Shown one piece after another: positions 10,639-27,190 of a stretch of 32,000 nucleotides of DNA (within the stretch, counting starts at the first letter, position 1; the number at the start of each line of letters is the position of its first letter). Both the position numbers and the translations under genes were made by a program. Under the pieces are notes generated by a model, which was not told the DNA's origin, searched no databases, and saw only the letters and a program-made list of their open reading frames with translations. Location: assembly GCA_003144275.1 (NCBI GenBank), contig NJBF01000034.1, positions 1 through 32,000 of the forward strand, read 5' to 3'. This DNA is from Candidatus Heimdallarchaeota archaeon B3_Heim. Lineage in GTDB: Archaea; Asgardarchaeota; Heimdallarchaeia; Hodarchaeales; Hodarchaeaceae.

Positions 10639-11481
10639 TCAATTCAGTGGAACTTGGACTCGCTCATGTGAAGCAATTTTACTTACCGATTTCAAGCCAT
10701 TCTTCTTTAAAAAATGAACCGTAGGTTCAAATGCATATCCTACATCTGCAGGACGATGAGCATCGCTTCCAATAACAAGAGGAATCTTTCTCTCTATTAA
10801 TTCCTTGATAATACGTTTGTTTGGGTATAATTCTTTTTCAGATTTTCTTAATCCAGAAGTGTTAATTTCGACTGCCATATTACTAGTTTCGAGCGCATCT
10901 AACACTCGTAATATGCTTTCCCATATTCTCTCTTCATTATCAGTTGTAAAGCCGAGTTTCTTAATGACATCAAAATGTCCAAGAATATCATAGAAATTAC
11001 TTCTGACTAGTTCAAGTAAATCGCTGTAATATGACAATTGCAGGGTATCTTTCCCATTATTTTTTCGTGATAACTCATCTGGCAATGTAAATGAACTATC
11101 AATTGGTATGATGTGATCTTTCCATTTTAAACCATGTATAGATCCGATTAAATAATCCAGATCAGATAAATACGGTTTTAATGCTTGTTTGTATTGCGAA
11201 AAGATAGGTTTATGGAAGTCGACTTCAAAAGCAACCATGGTTTGGATCTTTGATTTGAAGTTCTCTTGTAATTCCTTTGCAGTGGATAAATAATTCGGTA
11301 ATTCAGAAATATCCATAGCATACCTGTGAAACTGGGGAGGTAAGAGACACATTGGAAAATGGCCACTAAGTCCAATCTCAGGTAGCCCAAGAGAAATCGC
11401 TACTCGAATATATTCCATTAAATGACCATCAGCGTGATTACAACGAAATGAATGAGTATGATAATCACCAGGCAAGAACAT
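10639..11481 (-). CDS. PHP-family histidinol-phosphatase (HisJ-like)
   Basis: DYHTHS..C.HA, IGSIH, GHFD, EINTSGLRK and GSDAH. Start taken at MFLPG (11481). Confidence 0.85.
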   Translation of the reverse strand: MFLPGDYHTHSFRCNHADGHLMEYIRVAISLGLPEIGLSGHFPMCLLPPQFHRYAMDISELPNYLSTAKELQENFKSKIQTMVAFEVDFHKPIFSQYKQALKPYLSDLDYLIGSIHGLKWKDHIIPIDSSFTLPDELSRKNNGKDTLQLSYYSDLLELVRSNFYDILGHFDVIKKLGFTTDNEERIWESILRVLDALETSNMAVEINTSGLRKSEKELYPNKRIIKELIERKIPLVIGSDAHRPADVGYAFEPTVHFLKKNGLKSVSKIASHERVQVPLN

Positions 11482-11645
11482 TACACATCTAAACTCACAT
11501 AATTGTTGTATGAGATAAAAGGATGACATCAATACGAATAATTATACGATTTACAAGGTCTCGCTAACCAGATGTTGCGTAATAGGTAGGTATTTCGTAG
11601 TGTATTTAACCCATCAGGAATAGTAACCAACTAGGTCGATACACA

Positions 11646-13349
11646 ATGACAATTTTCGAAGAGGCCGAAAGTCTTTGGAAAACGTATGTAGCTCATAAAA
11701 AGTGGTTTTCCACGGTATTAGGCGAGACGTGGTATGTACGTTATCCGGTGGATTCAATCGGAACGGAAGAAGCTAAAACCTACAAACGGTCCCTTTTCTT
11801 GGGTGATGATTCTGTTCATGCATGGGAGGCAACAGGTGTACGTAACAAAATTATCCAGCGTTTGATTGATAGCTCTGAATGGAAAATTCGTCCGTGGTAC
11901 GGTGATCTTGGATTTTTTGCTGACCAGATTAGATTTCTTCCTCCCGTTCCAGAAAATGAGTTAGATTTTGTTGTTCGGAAATCATTATTAGCTGAAGATT
12001 ATTTCTCTAGCAGAGATCGGTTTAAAGATACCCGAATCGGACTTCTTAGCTTTCTAGACCCTGAGATAACGGAAAAACCCGAACAGTCCTCATTCATATA
12101 TGATTTAAATCGACCAGAAGATATTGCAAAAAAATATTCAAAATGTCAAATTGAACTTTATGGCTTATTGTCGATAATAATCACTAAACTCTATATCTTA
12201 TCGGATGAAGAAGTATCAGAAGTCATAGATTTCCTTTTTGATTATGACACAGCCGATAAATTACTTGTACGTCGTTTCATTAAACCTAATCGGGATGATA
12301 ATCGTCCCTTCATCGGGGAGCAAAATCCTCATACAAAATTGAAACCTAACTTCTTACTTCGATATATTGCCGGTGAAGATCCAGAATATTTTCCCTACCG
12401 CATCTTTCACTTATGGCTTCGCTTATTGCTAGCGTTTGACGCGAAGGCAGTTACAGTCCTAGAGGATATGAAAATTGATGTCGTTGAAGAATTCCCTGAT
12501 ATTGAGACAATGAAGAGCGCTTTGCTCTTTTCGACAAGGTTGAATCAATTTAATACAGTGAAAGATAATTTCAGAGCAAAATTGAGAAGTGAATATGCTC
12601 AACAGCGCAATTATAGTGGATATATGTCAGAATTTATTCATATTCTACAAAGTCAGAGAGAACTATTTACTGAGAAGCCCAATTCTACCGTTCTTTCGAT
12701 GCTTGATTTAACAAAGTACCAATCTCAATTCCTATGTCGTGAATTAGGTGACGTAATGATTGAATCAGTCCTGAAAAATCTGGGAAAGCAAATACCTGAA
12801 CCTGAAGGTGTGAGTAAGATTCAATCGAGGCTAATTTTGAATCGAAGAATCAATAATCTTGAAAAATATGTACTCACCAAGGAAGTTGAAGCTGAAGTTA
12901 TAAATATTATAATAAACTTGCATACGCATTTAGGGAGTGAAGCAGAGGAACAAGCTATTGAGGATGCGTTCAAAATTACCTATGATACTCTAGTTCCAAG
13001 AGGAGAAGTTTATTTCAATGAATTAGAGAAAGAAGTTAAAGAGGCTCAAGCTGAAACAGGGGGTATGGATGTAAGAAAGGAACTAATGGAAACTACAGAT
13101 ACACCGCAGAATTTAGCTAAACAGTATGGTAACAAAGCACTTAATCTTGTTGACGACGAAGCTTCAGTAGCTGACATATATTCAAGCATACTAGCATTAA
13201 AAAGTACTGAACTAGCATTTGGAGGAGGAAATATTTCAATATTACAGCAAAGAAAGATTACTCAGTCATTTATTGAGCTATTTAAAGAAGAGTTTAGATT
13301 CCTGGGGTTATTAACGAAAACTTCGGTTGATGGAGCACAGGAGGAATAA
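11646..13349 (+). CDS. Hypothetical 567-aa soluble, largely helical protein (gene 1 of GTPase operon)
   Basis: Long ORF with no TM segments and no recognised motif; 5 nt from the next gene. Confidence 0.8.
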   Translation: MTIFEEAESLWKTYVAHKKWFSTVLGETWYVRYPVDSIGTEEAKTYKRSLFLGDDSVHAWEATGVRNKIIQRLIDSSEWKIRPWYGDLGFFADQIRFLPPVPENELDFVVRKSLLAEDYFSSRDRFKDTRIGLLSFLDPEITEKPEQSSFIYDLNRPEDIAKKYSKCQIELYGLLSIIITKLYILSDEEVSEVIDFLFDYDTADKLLVRRFIKPNRDDNRPFIGEQNPHTKLKPNFLLRYIAGEDPEYFPYRIFHLWLRLLLAFDAKAVTVLEDMKIDVVEEFPDIETMKSALLFSTRLNQFNTVKDNFRAKLRSEYAQQRNYSGYMSEFIHILQSQRELFTEKPNSTVLSMLDLTKYQSQFLCRELGDVMIESVLKNLGKQIPEPEGVSKIQSRLILNRRINNLEKYVLTKEVEAEVINIIINLHTHLGSEAEEQAIEDAFKITYDTLVPRGEVYFNELEKEVKEAQAETGGMDVRKELMETTDTPQNLAKQYGNKALNLVDDEASVADIYSSILALKSTELAFGGGNISILQQRKITQSFIELFKEEFRFLGLLTKTSVDGAQEE

Positions 13350-13354
13350 AAAAT

Positions 13355-15301
13355 ATGGTAGACTTATCTAACATCGAGAAACAACTGGAAGACGAATTTG
13401 GTCAATTGGGAATTAATTATTTATTTCCCCAGCTAGATGTTATTCGTTCAGCTCGAAATTTAGCATCTAATATCGAAGATGCACGATTAATGACAGAGAA
13501 ATTCTTCTTATCCTATAAAATGATTGAGCAATGGCTAGCTCCGGTAATTGTTCCAATTAATGATAACTTATTTGGTCTAGAATCACATTTACGTGACCTT
13601 CAATCGCAAATTAAGCATCTCATTACAGAAGAAGAGATAATATATTGGAAAGATGTAGCAAATAGTGAAAATGCCAGTATTAAGTCCTTATTTTCTGATA
13701 TCGACTCACTACGGAAGTATATTCTCGATCAACGTGCAAAATTACTTCAATCCGCACATCGACATGAATTACCAGAGTTATTTGGTTTAGTCCTTTGGCC
13801 TTATACTGAATACACTGATGTAAAAGACGCAGTAAATGATGTACGGAAGATTTATTTTGGGCCAAACAATAGTTATCGAAAACAAAATCTTCTAACTGAT
13901 GCATTAATACTTACCGCATTATCGGAAGATGTATTAACTCATAAATCACAAACAAGGCAATCGTTCCATCAAATTGATAGTTTAATCGAAACCTCTCTTA
14001 CTTTTAGACGGGTTGAGGAGCAATTTGAATGGTCTAAGTATCAGCGAGATCCAAGTGACGGACAGTTTAATGAAGGTCAAGTGTTCTCAATAATGGACAA
14101 TTTAATGCCTGGATATCCACGTGATGAACTCAGAAAAGGACTGAACACATTTTATGATTCATCTCTCGATAAGTACCCCATTGGTAAGTTTATAGCATGG
14201 CTTTCAGATATCATGCGTATGAATACTATGGCAAAAAGTCAGGGGGAAGACCGACCAGGTGAATTACGACTCAAGAAGGAGCATTTACTAGGGCTCTCAA
14301 TTATGGATAAACATCGCAACAGCGAAGTACTTGGGAATATTGGAGATCTGCAAGGCACATTTGAAAGAATACTAGCGCCATTTCACGAATTGAAACAGAA
14401 TAATGTGTTCATGCAAAGTTCTCAATTTGTGATAGATAATGTGCTAGAAATTCCTTCAAGAGCCTGGATATACGACTACAGTGGTGTTGAAACAGAAATC
14501 CTTAGATCCACTCTATTCATGCTATCTGATAGACAGCCAAAGTTTGATGTCTTAGAAATTTGTCAAAAATTATCCAATATTGTCTTATCAGGCAGAGTTA
14601 ATAGGAATGATCTTAATGATGGGAATTATGTCTTAACGAATAAATTATCTGTCAGATTGTGGGACTATATCAGCAATCAACTGATGAAACTTCTTGAAGA
14701 GACGTTGATTCACGAGGAAATTCAATCTGTTCGTTTGCTTAAGAGCATCTTTTCAAGTGAGGATACGACATCATTGATCACTGCAAAGAAATTTGCTCCA
14801 GTATACCAAGTAAATATCGATTTCAAGCGGGGAATCTCTTTTGATGAGAAGGGTGTTCATCCAGAGACATTAAGCATTTGGATCCGCTCTGGATTTCCAT
14901 TTGAATATCGCTACGCCCAAATGGCCGGCTATCCTTGGTTTTTTGACACAAACCTTTTACTAGAATCACTTGTAATTGAAGCTTTATCTCTTCCATCCTT
15001 TAAAGTTTCTTCACTTCATGAAAATGTTAAATTACGACAAGCAGTATTTATGGTTGATGATTTAACTTATATTATCTATTATGATACTCATCCCGAGGGA
15101 ATATCTGCGTTGGCGTTTAAAGAAGTCGATATTATGGATGAAGCTGGTATTGATCCTGTTGAGATTATTTATCGTCCCCACAAATACCTATCATTGGGTC
15201 CAGAGAAAAATAATTTACATTTAGTTTTAGATAATGCACGTGCTAAAGATCCTAAGGATCTAATGACTGTTATTTCAAATATTAAGTATAAAAGGAGATA
15301 G
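13355..15301 (+). CDS. Hypothetical 648-aa protein with N-terminal coiled-coil-like region and putative C-terminal longin-like domain (gene 2)
   Basis: Long ORF; RBS GGAGG upstream. The C-terminal LSIWIRSGFPFEY...DTNLLLESLVIEAL...AVFMVDDLTYIIYYD follows a longin-like beta-beta-alpha-beta-beta-beta pattern (inference). Confidence 0.78.
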   Translation: MVDLSNIEKQLEDEFGQLGINYLFPQLDVIRSARNLASNIEDARLMTEKFFLSYKMIEQWLAPVIVPINDNLFGLESHLRDLQSQIKHLITEEEIIYWKDVANSENASIKSLFSDIDSLRKYILDQRAKLLQSAHRHELPELFGLVLWPYTEYTDVKDAVNDVRKIYFGPNNSYRKQNLLTDALILTALSEDVLTHKSQTRQSFHQIDSLIETSLTFRRVEEQFEWSKYQRDPSDGQFNEGQVFSIMDNLMPGYPRDELRKGLNTFYDSSLDKYPIGKFIAWLSDIMRMNTMAKSQGEDRPGELRLKKEHLLGLSIMDKHRNSEVLGNIGDLQGTFERILAPFHELKQNNVFMQSSQFVIDNVLEIPSRAWIYDYSGVETEILRSTLFMLSDRQPKFDVLEICQKLSNIVLSGRVNRNDLNDGNYVLTNKLSVRLWDYISNQLMKLLEETLIHEEIQSVRLLKSIFSSEDTTSLITAKKFAPVYQVNIDFKRGISFDEKGVHPETLSIWIRSGFPFEYRYAQMAGYPWFFDTNLLLESLVIEALSLPSFKVSSLHENVKLRQAVFMVDDLTYIIYYDTHPEGISALAFKEVDIMDEAGIDPVEIIYRPHKYLSLGPEKNNLHLVLDNARAKDPKDLMTVISNIKYKRR

Positions 15302-15306
15302 AAACA

Positions 15307-16410
15307 ATGTCAGACACAAGAGAAGAATCAATAAATGCTGGAAGACTTCTCGTTGTAGGTACTCAAGGCGGTGGTAAAACCGCATTAGTAACCATACTAG
15401 CAGCCCGTACAGATCAATCAATGAGTTATGAAGAGGATTTCGGGGGTACAATCGAAACAGAATATCTACGTATTTCATTTGATGAAGGGCGATTTTTTAG
15501 CCTATTATTGCCCGTAGGTGGGCAAGAAAAGTGGCAGAAATTACGTGAACGTTTTGGTAGTACAGCAGAGGGTATGATTATTATTTTAGATTCTTGTACC
15601 AAGAAATTCTGGGTTAATTCTTTATCACAAGCTACATCTATCTCCTCTTTCTTACCGTATGACAATTACCCAATTGCTCCTGTAGTAACCAAACGAGATT
15701 TGAATGAAGGAATTCGTAAAGAAATAGATAATTTCGCACAGACAATCATGGACGGTTTAGAACAGGCCAAAACGTCTCCCATCGTATATTATAGTCGGGG
15801 TTTCCGTATAACAGAAAGAAAAGTTGATCTTCTTGGAGAAATAGTCCCATTCACGATCTTAGAACAGATTATTATCAACAGCTTAGAGTCAAAGTATTTC
15901 ACTGGATTAGTACCAGGTAATGCACGAAAAGGGAAAGTACTGTTGCCAGGATTTAGCCTAGTAAATTGTCGAATTTTGAGTAGAGCATTAACCCAAGAAT
16001 TATGTACTACAACCGAGGGAGACCAGATGGAAATCCTCGGGTTATTGAATGATATGAGACCTAGTATGCTTGAATTAGACACTAATTGGGTTGATTTACT
16101 ACAAAAATATCCTAAAGCAGGAGCTGAACCTCAAGTAAATATAAATGATTTATCACTTGAAGCAATAAAAGATACCATACTCAACAATCTCCTAGCAAGT
16201 GATGCAGATATTAGTGATTTTGTATCAAAACTTGGAACTCTTAATCCAAAGACAGGATGGAGCGTAAGTGGTCATGAACATATCTCAATTTTCGAAGATG
16301 AGGGATTAGGATCTGCAGCTACTCTTATAAGAAAAATGATGGTTGATGTGAAAGAGAGCGTTCGAGTAGACAAATTCAGTGTATTTAATCCAATTGAAGA
16401 ACTTTTTTAG
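15307..16410 (+). CDS. Divergent small-GTPase-family P-loop protein with large internal insertion (gene 3)
   Basis: G1 GTQGGGKT, G2 GTIET, G3-like PVGGQE, G4 TKRD; RBS GGAG upstream. Confidence 0.85.
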   Translation: MSDTREESINAGRLLVVGTQGGGKTALVTILAARTDQSMSYEEDFGGTIETEYLRISFDEGRFFSLLLPVGGQEKWQKLRERFGSTAEGMIIILDSCTKKFWVNSLSQATSISSFLPYDNYPIAPVVTKRDLNEGIRKEIDNFAQTIMDGLEQAKTSPIVYYSRGFRITERKVDLLGEIVPFTILEQIIINSLESKYFTGLVPGNARKGKVLLPGFSLVNCRILSRALTQELCTTTEGDQMEILGLLNDMRPSMLELDTNWVDLLQKYPKAGAEPQVNINDLSLEAIKDTILNNLLASDADISDFVSKLGTLNPKTGWSVSGHEHISIFEDEGLGSAATLIRKMMVDVKESVRVDKFSVFNPIEELF

Positions 16411-16670
16411 GAGTTTCCATAAGGGAGTGCATTGAGTGAAATCACTGGCGGGGAATTGCTAAACGAGTACATAATTTTTTGTTGAAACTCATCAAAAGAA
16501 TACATTTGGCCTTCATCATCCTTAATGTGAAAGCAAGACTCTTTGACTAGAATCTCAAAAACGTCTGGGGCCATCGTAGGATAGAATGTGTTACTACTTA
16601 ATACACCAAGAGAGATAATTTGAGTTTGTTTGGGTTGAGCACTTCTTTCAAGATAAAAATGTGAGTTCAT
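16407..16670 (-). CDS. Small hypothetical protein (87 aa)
   Basis: ATG-started ORF filling the intergenic gap, convergent with the GTPase (4-nt overlap); no motif. Confidence 0.5.
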   Translation of the reverse strand: MNSHFYLERSAQPKQTQIISLGVLSSNTFYPTMAPDVFEILVKESCFHIKDDEGQMYSFDEFQQKIMYSFSNSPPVISLNALPYGNS

Positions 16671-16772: not shown

Positions 16773-17798
16773 TCACTTGTTCTGAACAGTGGAGATATCT
16801 GATAATTTCCAAACATCTTCATCTACTACATAGCTGATCAGATTTTTTTCCTGTAATATAGAGAGAACTGCATCAATTTCTTCATGAGAAAGCTCGGGGA
16901 TGTTTCGACACAGTTCTTCAGCCTGAGCAGGTTTTTGATCTAAAAGTTTAAGGATTTTTTTTTCATTAGAAGTTTTAACCTGATTAAAAGCATTTTTTAA
17001 TGTTTTAGAACTCTCTAGTGGAAATTCTATAATATCAATATCCTCCTGATCTTCGTGATGTAAAGTATGATGTACCCGCTCTAAAACTGCTAAATGAACC
17101 TCTTGGATAAAACTTCTAGGTACTCCTTTATCTAAACCTATTTGAACTGGAGTTGTCAATCCCACTGTTTGTAGTTCCAATACTCCACGAGTGAGTCGTA
17201 AGCCAAATAATATAAGACGCAGAACAATCAAAATAACAAGAATACTGATGATTATAACCGTCATTTGTGCCAAGAAGGAATCTATCAAAACATTTGTTAA
17301 TATAAACATCATTAGTGAAACTGTGAGTGTTCCTAATAGAGCTAATCCTAGCGCTCCTCGATTAAATGGTGCACGTCCATACGAGATAATTGAAATTTGA
17401 TCGATTGAAAGAGAAAGCTCACGTTTGACCCTAAGAATTTTTTCCAGAATACTTAGGTACTTTATTACCACTCGTTCAGAAGATAAGAAAATCATTTCCA
17501 CTCGTGTAGCAGAGTATACAACACCAATAAAAAGAAGAGCTAGTAATGTAGTTATCATTATGAAGGGAATGAATAATGTAGAGTTAAATATCCCTAATAA
17601 AATTACACTAATTATCACAACAAGAATAATAAAGGCCGCTAAATATAGAGATTCAGAAAAATAGATGATTTCTGTTGCCGATACTAGCTTTTCTTCGTGA
17701 ATCAACATTTTTTTCGCTTCATTGTTCAAGTTATACACCCCAACGAGTAAAGCCAACATCCTTAATCGAAATTTTTGGCGAATGTCCCTAATAATCAT
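16773..17798 (-). CDS. Membrane protein with bacterial PH-like domain and C-terminal winged-helix
   Basis: Two TM hairpins flank IFLSSERVVIKY...LSIDQISIISY (bPH-like). C-terminal EKKILKLLDQKPAQAEELCRNIPELSHEEIDAVLSILQEKNLISY is wHTH-like. The start overlaps the upstream stop. Confidence 0.72.
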   Translation of the reverse strand: MIIRDIRQKFRLRMLALLVGVYNLNNEAKKMLIHEEKLVSATEIIYFSESLYLAAFIILVVIISVILLGIFNSTLFIPFIMITTLLALLFIGVVYSATRVEMIFLSSERVVIKYLSILEKILRVKRELSLSIDQISIISYGRAPFNRGALGLALLGTLTVSLMMFILTNVLIDSFLAQMTVIIISILVILIVLRLILFGLRLTRGVLELQTVGLTTPVQIGLDKGVPRSFIQEVHLAVLERVHHTLHHEDQEDIDIIEFPLESSKTLKNAFNQVKTSNEKKILKLLDQKPAQAEELCRNIPELSHEEIDAVLSILQEKNLISYVVDEDVWKLSDISTVQNK

Positions 17799-19981
17799 TA
17801 TAATACCTCACTTAGTTTATTGACACCTTTAATATATGGGATTAACAAAGAGAAAAAGCGGCTTTGAATTGACAGACTATATCGGGGAATTAGGGTGAAT
17901 AGTTCAGATATAAATCTTGATATAATGATAATAACAACGAATGCTATCAACATTTCAGCAAAATTAAGCAATATATGATATTCAATGGTCGAATGACGGA
18001 TCATAGTATCAATATGTCTTAATGCAACAAACGACAAAAATAATTGCAGAAGAAGAAGTATCAGTCTATGTGCAGAAGCAGGGATTTGCATGCGAAAATT
18101 GAGGCCCAAAATCGCTTCATTCTTAATTTCAGTAATTGTTCGTTGGGGTAATATGCCAATCGTTCGAGCAATACGACGAGGCAATATTTCGTCAATAAAT
18201 AGTAACCGACGTTCACCTGTTGATTCACGTTCAACAATTATTAGGGATCTATAACGATTGATCAACTGACTTAATGAAAGGATGGTAATCGAAATAAGTG
18301 AAATAAAAACAAAGATAGGCTTTAGCTGTGGAATTAGGTTATTCTGTAAAAATATCATGAAAGTAATCGCTAGTAAGAAACCCACCAATATCGATTGTCG
18401 ATGATACGCCTTTGGCCCATATTTTCTCCAGGTTTCAACAATTTTTTCATCCCTATCAAGAAGATGGGTAAATTTTATTACATGACTCACATCTCGATGA
18501 GATTTATCAGACTCTGGGACAACTCGGCGACAGGCATTGAATAATCCCAGAATATTATCTTCATTGAGAATATTGGGAAATAATATCTCGTAGGGGACAA
18601 ATCCTCGTATAGATTTCTCTTCGATGCGATGAGAAAACCATGAAAGTATTGCAGGAAGGCGATAACCAAAAGTTAGATTGGTACCTGAACTAGCTAAAAA
18701 TGATATATTAGTGAAAGTACGGAAGAATGATAGAAAGAAAACAATAGCTAATGTGAAACTAATAAATAACCAACCAATATCATTACTCTCATAGGTGGAC
18801 AAGAGACCAAATAAGATAGTAGTTCCAATAAGAAGAGTTCCTGGAAGCGATATACCTGAAAAATTACTGATTGTAAAACCTTGTAAAAGTGATAGGGGTA
18901 ACTCAGAATAAGTGTAAACTCGCTTACCCCATAATCCAGAAACTAAATTGCGCTCTTGTTGAATTATTAATCGTAAATTAGTCACAGCAAAACGAACATA
19001 ACTTTTTGCAAATCGTATGGTATTTATAACTAGCAGAAACCCAAATATTCTAAGTAATCCAATAACGAGAGTTGTAAAAGAGAATGAATTTAGTATGAAT
19101 GTGAAATTCTCAAGAGAATTAAGAAAAAATAGTAATCCAATTATTCCTAAGAATTGTGTTTTCTTGTCGATAAACCCTACTTGAGTTCTATAAGTCACAG
19201 TTTCATTTTCTAAGAGAGGAAGATCCCATGACCAATCTATTTGGGAGCTTAAGATTCTATTTTTTCTGCTCACACTAGCTAGTAATGTGTGTAACTCCCG
19301 TGGATTACCTGCATTCAATCGAAATATTCTACCTCCAGTGGTTCGTATTTCTAATTCAGATCGGTGGGGAAAACCGAATAGAAAGATTAAACCCCCAATG
19401 ATTAGTAATGATAATCCCAAGTATGGTAAAAATTCAAGAATAGGATGGAGAAGATCGAAAAGGAATGAATTAAGAGGCGTACTAATATCCCCCACGAATA
19501 TTTCAAGCAAAAAGAGAATAATCTCGACTTCTATTGGCAAAGAAAGATTCTGTGATAAGCCAAATTCGAGAAACATTAAGGCTTGTTGAATAATAAAAAA
19601 CCCTGTAAGAATGATCCCTATTTTAATACGGGGCGTGATAGTTATCGTTTCAATATATTCTAAGTTAAAAGAATGAGTTTTAGAGAAGAATCCAATATTC
19701 CAAAAACGTTTCCTAGCAGAAAAACGTTTGTTGGATAATACAAGATCCCAAGGAGTAACAAGTATTGGAAAAAAGATTAAAATAGTTAATAATAAACAAA
19801 CAAGTGTTATTATACCTTCTATCGTACCAAATGCTAAGAAAGAGAGTATGGTTAAACAGAAAATGACTAAAATGACTCCGAAAATACGACCATATTGAAT
19901 TTCAAAAACTCGTCCCGAAAATAATTTTCGTTCATGATTAACAGGATACAACCAGGGACTTTTTAGGTCTGGAAATCGCAT
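17798..19981 (-). CDS. Multi-pass membrane protein with three repeated TM-hairpin + bPH-like modules (YdbT-like architecture)
   Basis: Three segments LVLSNKRF..., FAVTNLRLII... and LIIVE...RRLLFI, each between TM pairs. Start placed at MRFPD (19981) to avoid overlap with the divergent ABC gene; the track start is 20191. Confidence 0.68.
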   Translation of the reverse strand: MRFPDLKSPWLYPVNHERKLFSGRVFEIQYGRIFGVILVIFCLTILSFLAFGTIEGIITLVCLLLTILIFFPILVTPWDLVLSNKRFSARKRFWNIGFFSKTHSFNLEYIETITITPRIKIGIILTGFFIIQQALMFLEFGLSQNLSLPIEVEIILFLLEIFVGDISTPLNSFLFDLLHPILEFLPYLGLSLLIIGGLIFLFGFPHRSELEIRTTGGRIFRLNAGNPRELHTLLASVSRKNRILSSQIDWSWDLPLLENETVTYRTQVGFIDKKTQFLGIIGLLFFLNSLENFTFILNSFSFTTLVIGLLRIFGFLLVINTIRFAKSYVRFAVTNLRLIIQQERNLVSGLWGKRVYTYSELPLSLLQGFTISNFSGISLPGTLLIGTTILFGLLSTYESNDIGWLFISFTLAIVFFLSFFRTFTNISFLASSGTNLTFGYRLPAILSWFSHRIEEKSIRGFVPYEILFPNILNEDNILGLFNACRRVVPESDKSHRDVSHVIKFTHLLDRDEKIVETWRKYGPKAYHRQSILVGFLLAITFMIFLQNNLIPQLKPIFVFISLISITILSLSQLINRYRSLIIVERESTGERRLLFIDEILPRRIARTIGILPQRTITEIKNEAILGLNFRMQIPASAHRLILLLLQLFLSFVALRHIDTMIRHSTIEYHILLNFAEMLIAFVVIIIISRFISELFTLIPRYSLSIQSRFFSLLIPYIKGVNKLSEVL

Positions 19982-20146
19982 TACATTATCAACCGAAGGA
20001 GAATTAATAAATTCTTGCCCATTTTTTCCGAAAATAATTCGAAAATCAGAAGAAATCCACACCAACACATCTATCATACCAACAAAAATATAATAAGGAA
20101 TATAATTTCGTTTAGCCCCCCCAGTTCTTTTTTGAGGCATTACAAA

Positions 20147-21991
20147 TTGACATCCGACTCCGCTAGCCGTAACCAAAATTATCTTTCTCAACGCTGGTAC
20201 TCGCGCGGATACAAATGGTGGCTTTTAGGACACGTTCTTAAACATCGTTGGAAAATTCTAATTATAACAGTAACTACGATTATTGGTATCTTCCTTCAGA
20301 CCTTAATTCCATTCATCCTGGGGTACGTCTTTGAGACTATACCCTCTGGTGAACTCAGTCTCATTCTGAGTGCTGGTACACTTATAATCGCAATTGGATT
20401 AATGAAGCTGGTAACAAATTCCATCGCGGCAGCCTTGAATGAAATAATTGCCCAATATGTCGAGATGCAGATTAGAATTGAATTTTATCAAAATTTAGAG
20501 ACAAAATCAATGAGTTTTCACGATACAAGTCGAGCTGGGGATCTAATTCAAATGGCGACTGGAGATACACGCCAGATAAATGCCAGCATTTCACCTGGAG
20601 TACGAATAACGGTAACTACTGTTTCAACACTACTTTTTACTTGGATAGCAATGTTTATTGCGTCACCGACTCTCTCAATGGTGTTTTTACTTACACTACC
20701 CCTCTATATATTCTCCTTAAACCGATTTGGGAAGAAATTACATCCCCTTTCCAAGCAAAGACAAGCCTGTGTGGCAAGAATGAATGCAGAATTACAGGAA
20801 AATTTGACTGGAGTTCGAGTAGTTAGGACATTTTCTGTTCAAGAACAGGAAATTGAGAAGTTTTCAGCAACTCTTGAAAATTTGGAAGACATTCTGAAAG
20901 TACGAGGAGTTACTTCAGCTTTTTATGTACCTAGTTTAGTATTGGGAATAACTACTGCGTTCATATTTATTGCAGGCGTGTATCTAATGGATATCACATT
21001 GTTGGGAGTCGCAAATGTTAGTATTTTTGGTTATTCCGTTTACATACAATCTGTTGGAATGGGTGAAATAATAACATTCCTAGGCCTTACAAGTATACTT
21101 GCTATGCCAACAATGTTTCTGCGCTGGATCTTAGACATGACTCTTTTAGGCTTTGCTGGCGCAGCACGAATCTTTAATGTCGTAATTCATGATAATGTTA
21201 TAGAAACTGGAGATTACATCCCTGAAAAGGAACCTCAAGGCCAGATAAAATTTGAAAGCGTATATTTTTCGTACAAAGAAGATAGCCCATCAGTATTGAA
21301 TAATATAGCGTTAACAATTAAACCAGGAGAAACTGTAGCAATAATTGGTCCTACAGGTTGTGGAAAGACTACTTTGGGGAAAATGATATATCGGTTATAT
21401 GATGTAACAAAGGGATCTGTTCTGATAGACAATGTTAATGTGAAAGATTGGGATATCAAAACACTACGCTGTCTTGTTGGCGTTATAGAGCAAGATACTT
21501 TTCTCTTTTCAACTTCCATAAGAAATAATATCACATATGGAAAAGACAATGCTACTAACGAAGAAATTATGGCTGCAGCTATTGCTGCTCAAGCTCATGA
21601 CTTTATACAAGAATTTACTGAAGGATATGACACAATTGTGGGAGAAAGAGGGGTTACGTTAAGTGGGGGACAACGTCAGCGAATTGCAATGGCCCGTGGA
21701 TTTTTAGCTGACCCTAGAATATTAATTATGGATGATGCTACCTCAGCTGTTGATGCAGCGACAGAGGCACGTATCCAGAAAGCTATTCTGAACCTCCAAG
21801 AAGGACGAACAACAATAATCATCACACATAGGTTGGCGACACTAAAGACTGCAAATAAAATAATTTTTATGGAGAGGGGAAATATTGTACGTATTGGGAA
21901 CCATGCAGAATTAATTACAAGTTTTGCGCCATATAGACGAATTTTTAGACGCTATATGACACTACCTCCTTTAGTTATTGAAGGGAATTAA
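20147..21991 (+). CDS. ABC exporter, fused TMD-NBD, degenerate-site subunit (TM287/MdlA-like)
   Basis: GPTGCGKT, LSGGQRQR, Walker B ILIMDD (Asp replaces catalytic Glu), ITHR. TTG start at 20147 with GAGG RBS preferred over the track start 20015. Confidence 0.92.
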   Translation: MTSDSASRNQNYLSQRWYSRGYKWWLLGHVLKHRWKILIITVTTIIGIFLQTLIPFILGYVFETIPSGELSLILSAGTLIIAIGLMKLVTNSIAAALNEIIAQYVEMQIRIEFYQNLETKSMSFHDTSRAGDLIQMATGDTRQINASISPGVRITVTTVSTLLFTWIAMFIASPTLSMVFLLTLPLYIFSLNRFGKKLHPLSKQRQACVARMNAELQENLTGVRVVRTFSVQEQEIEKFSATLENLEDILKVRGVTSAFYVPSLVLGITTAFIFIAGVYLMDITLLGVANVSIFGYSVYIQSVGMGEIITFLGLTSILAMPTMFLRWILDMTLLGFAGAARIFNVVIHDNVIETGDYIPEKEPQGQIKFESVYFSYKEDSPSVLNNIALTIKPGETVAIIGPTGCGKTTLGKMIYRLYDVTKGSVLIDNVNVKDWDIKTLRCLVGVIEQDTFLFSTSIRNNITYGKDNATNEEIMAAAIAAQAHDFIQEFTEGYDTIVGERGVTLSGGQRQRIAMARGFLADPRILIMDDATSAVDAATEARIQKAILNLQEGRTTIIITHRLATLKTANKIIFMERGNIVRIGNHAELITSFAPYRRIFRRYMTLPPLVIEGN

Positions 21992-26569: not shown

Positions 26570-27190
26570 ATGTCACGAGCAAAAATGGATTTCGCTGAGG
26601 GAATATTCCGCTCAAATTTCAAGGTGTGTGTGCTTGGTGATGGAGGGGTTGGTAAAACGGCAATTATTCAACATTTACTGGGTAGGGCGTTTACAACGAA
26701 TTATCTACTTACCATAGGAACAGATATTTCGACATTTCAGCTTCATCATAATGGCAAAAATCTTCGTCTGCAGCTTTGGGATCTGGCCGGCCAAACTCGA
26801 TTTGATGTTGTTAGGAACTTGTATTTTAGTGGTGCTCGTGCAGGTGTTCTTGTTTTTGACCTGACCCGTGAAACATCACTTCACTCCCTTGCTAAATGGA
26901 AAAAAGAAATCTTCAGCCATTCTCAACGAAAAGTTCCCCTACTTATACTTGGAAATAAGTCTGATTTGGATGGTTCTCATTTCTCCTATCTTGATCCTGT
27001 TGACAATTTCATCCAAGAGATTGAGAAAGAATACAATAATGAATATGAGAATAACGAATTACAGGTTCCTTTTCACACAACTTCTGCCAAAACAGGTAAT
27101 AATATCTTGAAAGCCTTTGATTCCCTTGGACAAATATTGTTGACCTATCAAAAACAGACTAGTGCTATTCCAAAAATTCCATTGGAATAA
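26570..27190 (+). CDS. Rab-like small GTPase
   Basis: GDGGVGKT, TIGTDI, RLQLWDLAGQ, YFSGA, LVFDLT, GNKSD and TSAK; no C-terminal Cys. Confidence 0.92.
   Translation: MSRAKMDFAEGIFRSNFKVCVLGDGGVGKTAIIQHLLGRAFTTNYLLTIGTDISTFQLHHNGKNLRLQLWDLAGQTRFDVVRNLYFSGARAGVLVFDLTRETSLHSLAKWKKEIFSHSQRKVPLLILGNKSDLDGSHFSYLDPVDNFIQEIEKEYNNEYENNELQVPFHTTSAKTGNNILKAFDSLGQILLTYQKQTSAIPKIPLE

Follow-up and report, generated by a model that had tools for sequence, protein, structure and literature searches.

Small GTPases that work on a platform of longin or roadblock domains are an established kind of system. In Fuzzy-Rsg1 of the CPLANE complex (PDB 7q3e), two longin domains contact the GTPase in a manner that its authors term effector-like, through beta-sheet completion on the interswitch and a pre-beta1 loop near a hairpin (PMC9012472). 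Asgard genomes carry dozens of small GTPases and many roadblock/longin proteins whose pairings have not been assigned; in the cultured Lokiarchaeon, GTPase genes are generally not found in operons with such partners, which makes their regulators hard to assign (Tran et al. 2024, PMC10933270). One Ras-superfamily group, Rup3, is specific to Heimdallarchaeia and defined by G1-G2 and G2-G3 expansions (Vargova et al., bioRxiv 10.1101/2024.02.28.582541); neither “operon” nor “neighbo” occurs in the main text of that preprint. Here we describe a three-gene locus of Candidatus Heimdallarchaeota archaeon B3_Heim (order Hodarchaeales), located in the first 32,000 nucleotides of contig NJBF01000034.1 (assembly GCA_003144275.1). 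This stretch is referred to as the window and all positions follow its numbering; genes 1, 2 and 3 are the open reading frames (ORFs) of the trio in 5'->3' order. Our analysis suggests that the trio probably encodes one dedicated GTPase module, in which the gene 3 GTPase would be docked on a scaffold made of the gene 1 and gene 2 products.

The three genes are tightly packed. At both junctions the stop codon (TAA ahead of gene 2, TAG ahead of gene 3) is followed by 5 nt and ATG, and the ribosome-binding site (RBS) lies within the preceding gene (Table 1). Both coordinates and junctions agree with the original prediction, made without database searches, of a tight co-oriented operon (567, 648 and 367 aa, 5-nt gaps, embedded GGAGG and GGAG) with opposite-strand flanks, which are a PHP-domain gene upstream and an 87-aa ORF downstream. 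Gene 2 turned up in 11 of the 21 other species that GTDB places in this genus (12 of 22 counting this genome), and its profile had no match in ~380 further genomes of the phylum. Full-length gene 3 occurred in exactly the genomes that bear gene 2. Co-occurrence in other genomes had been set beforehand as a test of the original prediction, and the order gene 1-gene 2-gene 3 was intact in 12 of 12 loci (relatives at 47-98% identity), which argues that the arrangement is not due to chance. Synteny with the window extended to the wider neighbourhood in two near relatives, G018 and G020. In G006, G007, G009, G010 and G017 (45-63% identity), the trio alone was common with the window and the flanks were unrelated genes, for example a GNAT acetyltransferase or a methyltransferase. 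Consecutive locus tags were likewise seen for proteins of public metagenome-assembled genomes in at least 14 assemblies. The closest homologues, at 85-88% identity, bear names that agree with an origin in Hodarchaeales, Heimdallarchaeia.

Besides, genes 1 and 2 form a single 1212-aa open frame in G010. Further fusions of the pair were seen in P0193 (1208 aa), in P0196 (1257 aa, with no more than 30-34% identity) and in P0030 (partial). A distant version was found in metagenome locus L013 (6001-12062), where a 1094-aa fused-type protein shows weak similarity to gene 1 in its first half and to gene 2 in its final third. Behind it come two gene 3-like GTPases in tandem, 383 and 398 aa long, with 22-25% identity along the whole length (E 2.5e-24 and 2e-18). 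In a second distant case, a 559-aa gene 2-like protein precedes one gene 3-like GTPase. When the distant variant P0213 was searched against 400 genomes of the phylum, the one weak match obtained was the fused G010 gene (E 1.7e-7). Conserved order, shared occurrence and fusion are thus all signs that the trio is a single functional unit. Two other candidate features were rejected: the 1018-1029-aa open frames of G009 and G014, which resembled a gene 2-gene 3 fusion, are two same-frame genes with a stop between them, and selenocysteine in gene 2 was flagged (“1 TGA”) where the gene 2 stop had been read through into gene 3.

Table 1. Features of the trio and its immediate surroundings in the window (residues refer to the encoded protein; AF2, AlphaFold2).
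Feature	Positions	Strand	Description
PHP-domain gene	10639-11532	-	upstream neighbour
Intergenic region upstream of gene 1	11533-11645	+	likely operon promoter, judged from reading the sequence
TATTTAA	11603-11609		A/T-rich TATA-like box, ~40 nt ahead of the gene 1 start codon
Gene 1	11646-13349	+	ORF, 567 aa; soluble, acidic, all-alpha, orphan family
RBS of gene 2, GGAGG	13340-13344	+	within 3' end of gene 1
Gene 2	13355-15301	+	ORF, 648 aa
Gene 2, N-terminal helical domain	13355-14242	+	residues 1-296, predicted (AF2 model)
Gene 2, longin-like domain 1 (predicted)	14282-14749	+	residues 310-465; beta-hairpin 418-429 inserted ahead of last helices
Gene 2, longin-like domain 2 (predicted)	14789-15277	+	residues 479-641
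RBS of gene 3, GGAG	15294-15297	+	within 3' end of gene 2
Gene 3	15307-16410	+	ORF, 367 aa
Gene 3, G domain	15307-15900	+	~residues 1-198; from Pfam Ras, Ras/M-Ras structure alignments and invariant columns
Gene 3, probable C-terminal module	16027-16410	+	residues 241-367; conserved over whole length
87-aa ORF	16407-16670	-	convergent with gene 3, 4-nt overlap at gene 3 stop

How the products may fit together was modelled by predicting the complex of gene 2 (residues 20-648) and gene 3, both supplied as alignments, in three runs and with three controls. The pair reached an ipSAE of 0.69 (0.67-0.71 among runs) and the best control 0.00; of 80 solved complexes, 58 attained the mark for this score, as did 2 of 110 mismatched pairs. 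Runs had at least 76% of contacts in common, with partner pLDDT (predicted local distance difference test) at or above 75. An interface within the trio, which the original prediction required, is thus predicted in three patches: the long helices of gene 2 (61-127) would contact the tail of gene 3 (359-367), the hairpin of gene 2 (422-430) would contact the N-terminal strand (8-12) and residues 348-357 of gene 3, and longin-like domain 1 (320-321, 344, 348 and 383) would contact gene 3 residues 51-55, 64 and 66, which align to the Ras interswitch strands. As predictions, these models lend support to binding of gene 3 by gene 2. We propose that gene 1, which is all-alpha, and gene 2, with its helical N-domain and two tandem longin-like domains, would form a soluble scaffold for gene 3, a divergent GTPase of the Ras superfamily that has no Walker-B Asp and would carry a C-terminal module of ~170-180 aa. 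The N-terminal strand and interswitch edge of gene 3 would dock against longin-like domain 1 and the beta-hairpin, while its conserved C-terminal tail would latch onto the long helical hairpin. With this two-way docking, gene 2 would thus be the platform on which the nucleotide state of gene 3 is read or set, in a binding mode nearer to the effector-like Fuzzy-Rsg1 contact than to an exchange factor that pries the switches open. That a longin-like platform holds a GTPase of its own is plausible, and the original interpretation of the locus, a longin-like partner with a non-canonical GTPase, was upheld overall.

Two observations weigh against this proposal. Conservation of the predicted interface residues was not significantly enriched over that of other residues, and alignments to low-confidence Atlas models, which span gene 3 residues 6-359, favour a G5 motif located late in the protein (S326-I-F), at odds with a separate C-terminal module. 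The first of these observations fits an alternative in which the products of the co-transcribed genes do not associate and the interface is an artefact of the modelling. It is also relevant that ipSAE is the model's own confidence and that the model may draw on memory of the published Fuzzy-Rsg1 interface. However, gene 1-gene 2 fusions, strict co-occurrence and an order kept across 18-98% identity argue for joint function, and all three controls scored 0.00. We consider such an artefact improbable, although it is the best placed of the alternatives.

Gene 1, the proposed scaffold partner of gene 2, is the least familiar member of the trio. Its AF2 model (pLDDT 81) consists of helices only, and no segment of the three proteins, which are all acidic, approaches transmembrane level (maximum KD19 of 1.51). 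It had no Pfam or NCBIfam match, a sequence-profile search of the PDB gave nothing useful, and Foldseek searches of the PDB, AFDB clusters and Atlas returned only its own family. All 53 clusters of its homologues carry Hodarchaeales or Heimdall labels, and comparison of the gene 1 and gene 2 profiles revealed no homology. The description of both large proteins as soluble and motif-less, and of gene 1 as helical, was borne out in this way, and neither resolved to a known unrelated enzyme. A resemblance of gene 1 to the dynamin stalk was tried and dropped, as it was below noise. A split dynamin-like or membrane-remodelling machine, in which the gene 1 helical bundle would be an oligomerising stalk and the GTPase would act in trans, has in our view a small chance of being correct, below that of an artefactual interface. 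In G006 (L019, 11406-13751), gene 1 is seemingly interrupted: the operon strand has two ORFs, of 260 and 266 aa, and the ~760 bp between them contain a 226-aa ORF in opposite orientation, which may be a small mobile element.

For gene 2, an AF2 model built on 37 sequences (pLDDT 80; predicted template modelling score 0.70) placed a long helical hairpin (residues 46-133) in the N-domain, followed by two units with the beta-beta-alpha-beta-beta-beta-alpha topology of longin and roadblock domains. The first unit (312-416) is extended by hairpin 418-429 and further helices to 465, and the second (479-614) by an additional strand and helix (621-641). On the strength of this predicted topology, it is quite likely that gene 2 carries two longin-like domains; the longin-like segment originally flagged (14860-15125) would fall in the second. 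Sequence searches were silent. Gene 2 had no Pfam, NCBIfam or PDB sequence match, none of its 37 members matched Pfam Longin, Robl_LC7, Mon1 or Fuzzy longin profiles at E up to 10, the alignment with 22 roadblock proteins of relatives (hhalign) had a probability below 2, and the two domains had no sequence match to each other. A Pfam Longin search of relatives was uninformative, because this profile found nothing in them or in any control genome. Since there was no sequence-profile match, we call gene 2 longin-like in fold and keep it out of the Longin, Robl_LC7, Mon1 and Fuzzy families. Among structure searches, the wide search was swamped by the helical hairpin (64-135), an Atlas search with the C-terminal half gave nothing usable, and Foldseek gave weak matches only, in which subunits of Mon1-Ccz1, Fuzzy-Inturned/CPLANE and BLOC-3 were mixed with tandem GAF/PAS proteins. 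A yeast MON1 model aligned to residues 283-620 with a probability of 0.98 and a template modelling (TM) score of only 0.2, and a 302-aa Asgard protein cluster aligned to residues 310-631 at TM 0.58.

The recurrence of such subunits among the fold matches, the combination of two large subunits with a GTPase and the host lineage, Hodarchaeales, could together suggest that the trio is a tri-longin-type module of the Mon1-Ccz1 or Fuzzy families. We found no paper in a literature search that combined Asgard and tri-longin. Complexes of this type have two subunits with three longin domains each, whereas gene 1 is all-alpha with no longin domain and gene 2 has two, not three. Because this hexa-longin architecture fails, the trio was not filed with the tri-longin Rab guanine nucleotide exchange factors (RabGEFs). 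Moreover, a profile search of 1.84 billion representative proteins with gene 2 retrieved 26 proteins, all of its own family and none eukaryotic, TM scores did not exceed 0.2, and the predicted interface is not centred on the switch regions. A tri-longin assignment is thus very unlikely, more so than a dynamin-like machine.

Gene 3 is a divergent member of the Ras superfamily. Pfam Ras matched residues 13-137 above the cut-off (27.1 versus 21.6 bits), so the missing G3 Asp described below does not exclude it from the superfamily. Among 45 aligned sequences of the family, 45 matched Ras, 45 Roc and 44 Arf, and the family aligned to 27 canonical GTPases of the same genome with an hhalign probability of 97.8. 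The P-loop (G1, GxxxxGK[ST]) is present as G18-T25, with G18, G23 and K24 invariant in the 45 sequences, and the invariant T48 (G2) aligns to the switch I Thr of Ras. At G3, DxxGQ is replaced by P69-x-G-G-Q73, in which Asp has become Pro while Gly and the catalytic Gln are retained. This motif reads P[IV]GGQ[EQN] in 41 of 45 sequences, and P69, G71, G72 and Q73 are among the invariant residues listed; distant relatives (L013 and L014) retain the canonical DNPGQ. G4 is T128-K-R-D131, with K129 and D131 invariant; of 43 sequences scored for motifs, 42 have TKxD and the remaining one NKRD. The original description of a heavily modified Ras-superfamily GTPase fits both the lost Asp and the long region after G4.

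As a reference for motif spacing we took 22 canonical members of the Ras family from this genome. The distance from the P-loop Lys to G3 is 45 in gene 3 versus a median of 42.5, indicating no G2-G3 expansion, and that from G3 to G4 is 59 versus 58. In contrast, 240 residues separate G4 from the C terminus versus 58.5, which leaves ~180 extra. The extra region could be an insert ahead of G5, with S326-I-F as G5, or a module that follows a G5 at S163-R-G (Y-Y-S-R-G), which has normal spacing from G4. The profile alignment to canonical GTPases reaches residue 196, without confidence beyond residue 148. G009 has an intact minus-strand ORF of 126 aa (L017, 13763-14143) immediately upstream of gene 1, and it shares 59% identity with residues 241-366 of the G009 gene 3, including the conserved tail (consensus F-D-P-I-E-E-L-F). 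This copy shows that this part of gene 3 can stand alone, and on account of it we favour a C-terminal module over an insert, with fairly good confidence. The stand-alone copy could also compete for the helical hairpin of gene 2.

Such a layout, a G domain followed by a C-terminal domain, recalls Rag GTPases, and the missing G3 Asp recalls MglA, which also lacks it. Roadblock proteins are also common in these genomes, and one could imagine a Rag/Ragulator-like or MglA/MglB-like switch whose C-terminal module would be a roadblock pairing with the gene 2 domains. But Gtr1_RagA did not match gene 3 or any of 44 aligned relatives, the extra region was similar to nothing in Atlas, and roadblock profiles do not match gene 2. 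There is only a very slim chance that this reading is correct, on a par with a tri-longin module. The gene 3 family comprised 87 clusters with Heimdall-group or generic Asgard labels, except for two odd submitter names. Gene 3 is single-copy in this genome, which has at least 40 Ras-family matches (E below 1e-10). The window also encodes a canonical Ras-family GTPase of 206 aa (26570-27190; E 2.2e-37), and in G010 a canonical 205-aa one (L022, 3321-3938; Pfam Ras E 1.3e-26) is convergent with and directly downstream of gene 3.

The trio is dispensable. In G002 it is gone from the syntenic site, where only short remnants of the gene 3 end remain. Short ORFs or fragments in G002 (L094, 6202-6423 and 8458-8613) and G019 (L095, 431-736) match only the last 52-75 residues of gene 3; those of G002 lie between the flanking genes that bracket the operon in G009. 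Such fragments in trio-less genomes look like remnants of operon loss. The idea of an accessory conflict or defence module, patchy through gain and loss of a GTPase-based defence system, draws on the fact that, of the 21 other species in the genus, only 11 have the trio, on its loss from the G002 site and on the two unfamiliar genes apparently inserted beside it in this genome, but it is the least likely alternative of all, since PADLOC matches none of the three proteins, no nuclease, protease or other effector domain is present and the flanks are housekeeping genes. The two unfamiliar genes (341 and 797 aa, minus strand, 16773-20191) have no Pfam match and look like an insertion, as they are absent in the syntenic G018 and G020, where the 87-aa ORF directly adjoins ABC transporter genes; the 341-aa protein has a weak Csa3-like match (E 0.005). 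The 87-aa ORF had no family match and is kept in G018 and G020 at 77-81% identity, and because of this conservation it is probably a real small gene.

With regard to expression, the region of the TATTTAA box is likely the operon promoter, judging from its sequence. A sigma-70 scan upstream of gene 1 showed no excess over shuffles, and this promoter model is not applicable here. Four 151-nt records from one sediment metatranscriptome matched gene 1 only (97-100% identity), too few to show transcription of the operon. Related DNA was present in marine-sediment and cold-seep metagenomes.

The locus thus offers a pairing given by the genome itself: a GTPase that always comes with a longin-like and a helical partner, genes 1 and 2 being sometimes fused. 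This pairing and a predicted interface that can be mutated make GTPase-platform biochemistry directly testable in the closest archaeal relatives of eukaryotes. As the locus is narrowly distributed and eukaryotic homologues are lacking, its bearing on eukaryogenesis is limited. It is doubtful that gene 2 really is a multi-longin platform to which its own atypical GTPase is bound in an effector-like, Fuzzy-Rsg1-type mode. If this were true, a one-operon multi-longin GTPase holo-complex with a large helical co-subunit would already have been present in the archaeal order closest to eukaryotes and would provide a prokaryotic model for the origin of tri-longin and related platforms.

Among known systems, Mon1-Ccz1 and BLOC-3, which are RabGEFs of the tri-longin-domain type, differ from the trio in their hexa-longin architecture and have no homology to it detectable by sequence. 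MglA-MglB and Ragulator-Rag would resemble it in having a roadblock/longin-type platform that regulates a small GTPase. However, their platforms are dimers of small single-domain proteins, whereas gene 2 would have two such domains and a helical domain in one 648-aa chain, and has a 567-aa helical partner; no profile match was obtained. Rup3 is similar in being divergent, Heimdallarchaeia-restricted, unusual in its length additions and without eukaryotic relatives. Gene 3, whose family includes OLS16490.1 of Heimdallarchaeota LC_3, may belong to this group; the defining expansions are weak in it at most, with only ~5 additional residues between G1 and G2, none between G2 and G3 and ~180 after G4. 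The likeness to CPLANE would lie in an atypical GTPase with divergent G motifs that is constitutively bound by the tandem longin domains in a large subunit, through contacts that resemble those predicted here, and the longin domains of Fuzzy and Inturned were among the best fold matches of gene 2. CPLANE is metazoan, Fuzzy and Inturned have three longin domains each and no long helical N-domain, and Rsg1 is without the catalytic Gln that gene 3 retains; the partner here is all-alpha, and there is no sequence similarity. What sets the trio apart from the known platforms is a putative di-longin subunit with a helical domain of 300 aa, an orphan helical partner of 567 aa, and a GTPase that has lost the G3 Asp and probably gained a module of 170-180 aa.

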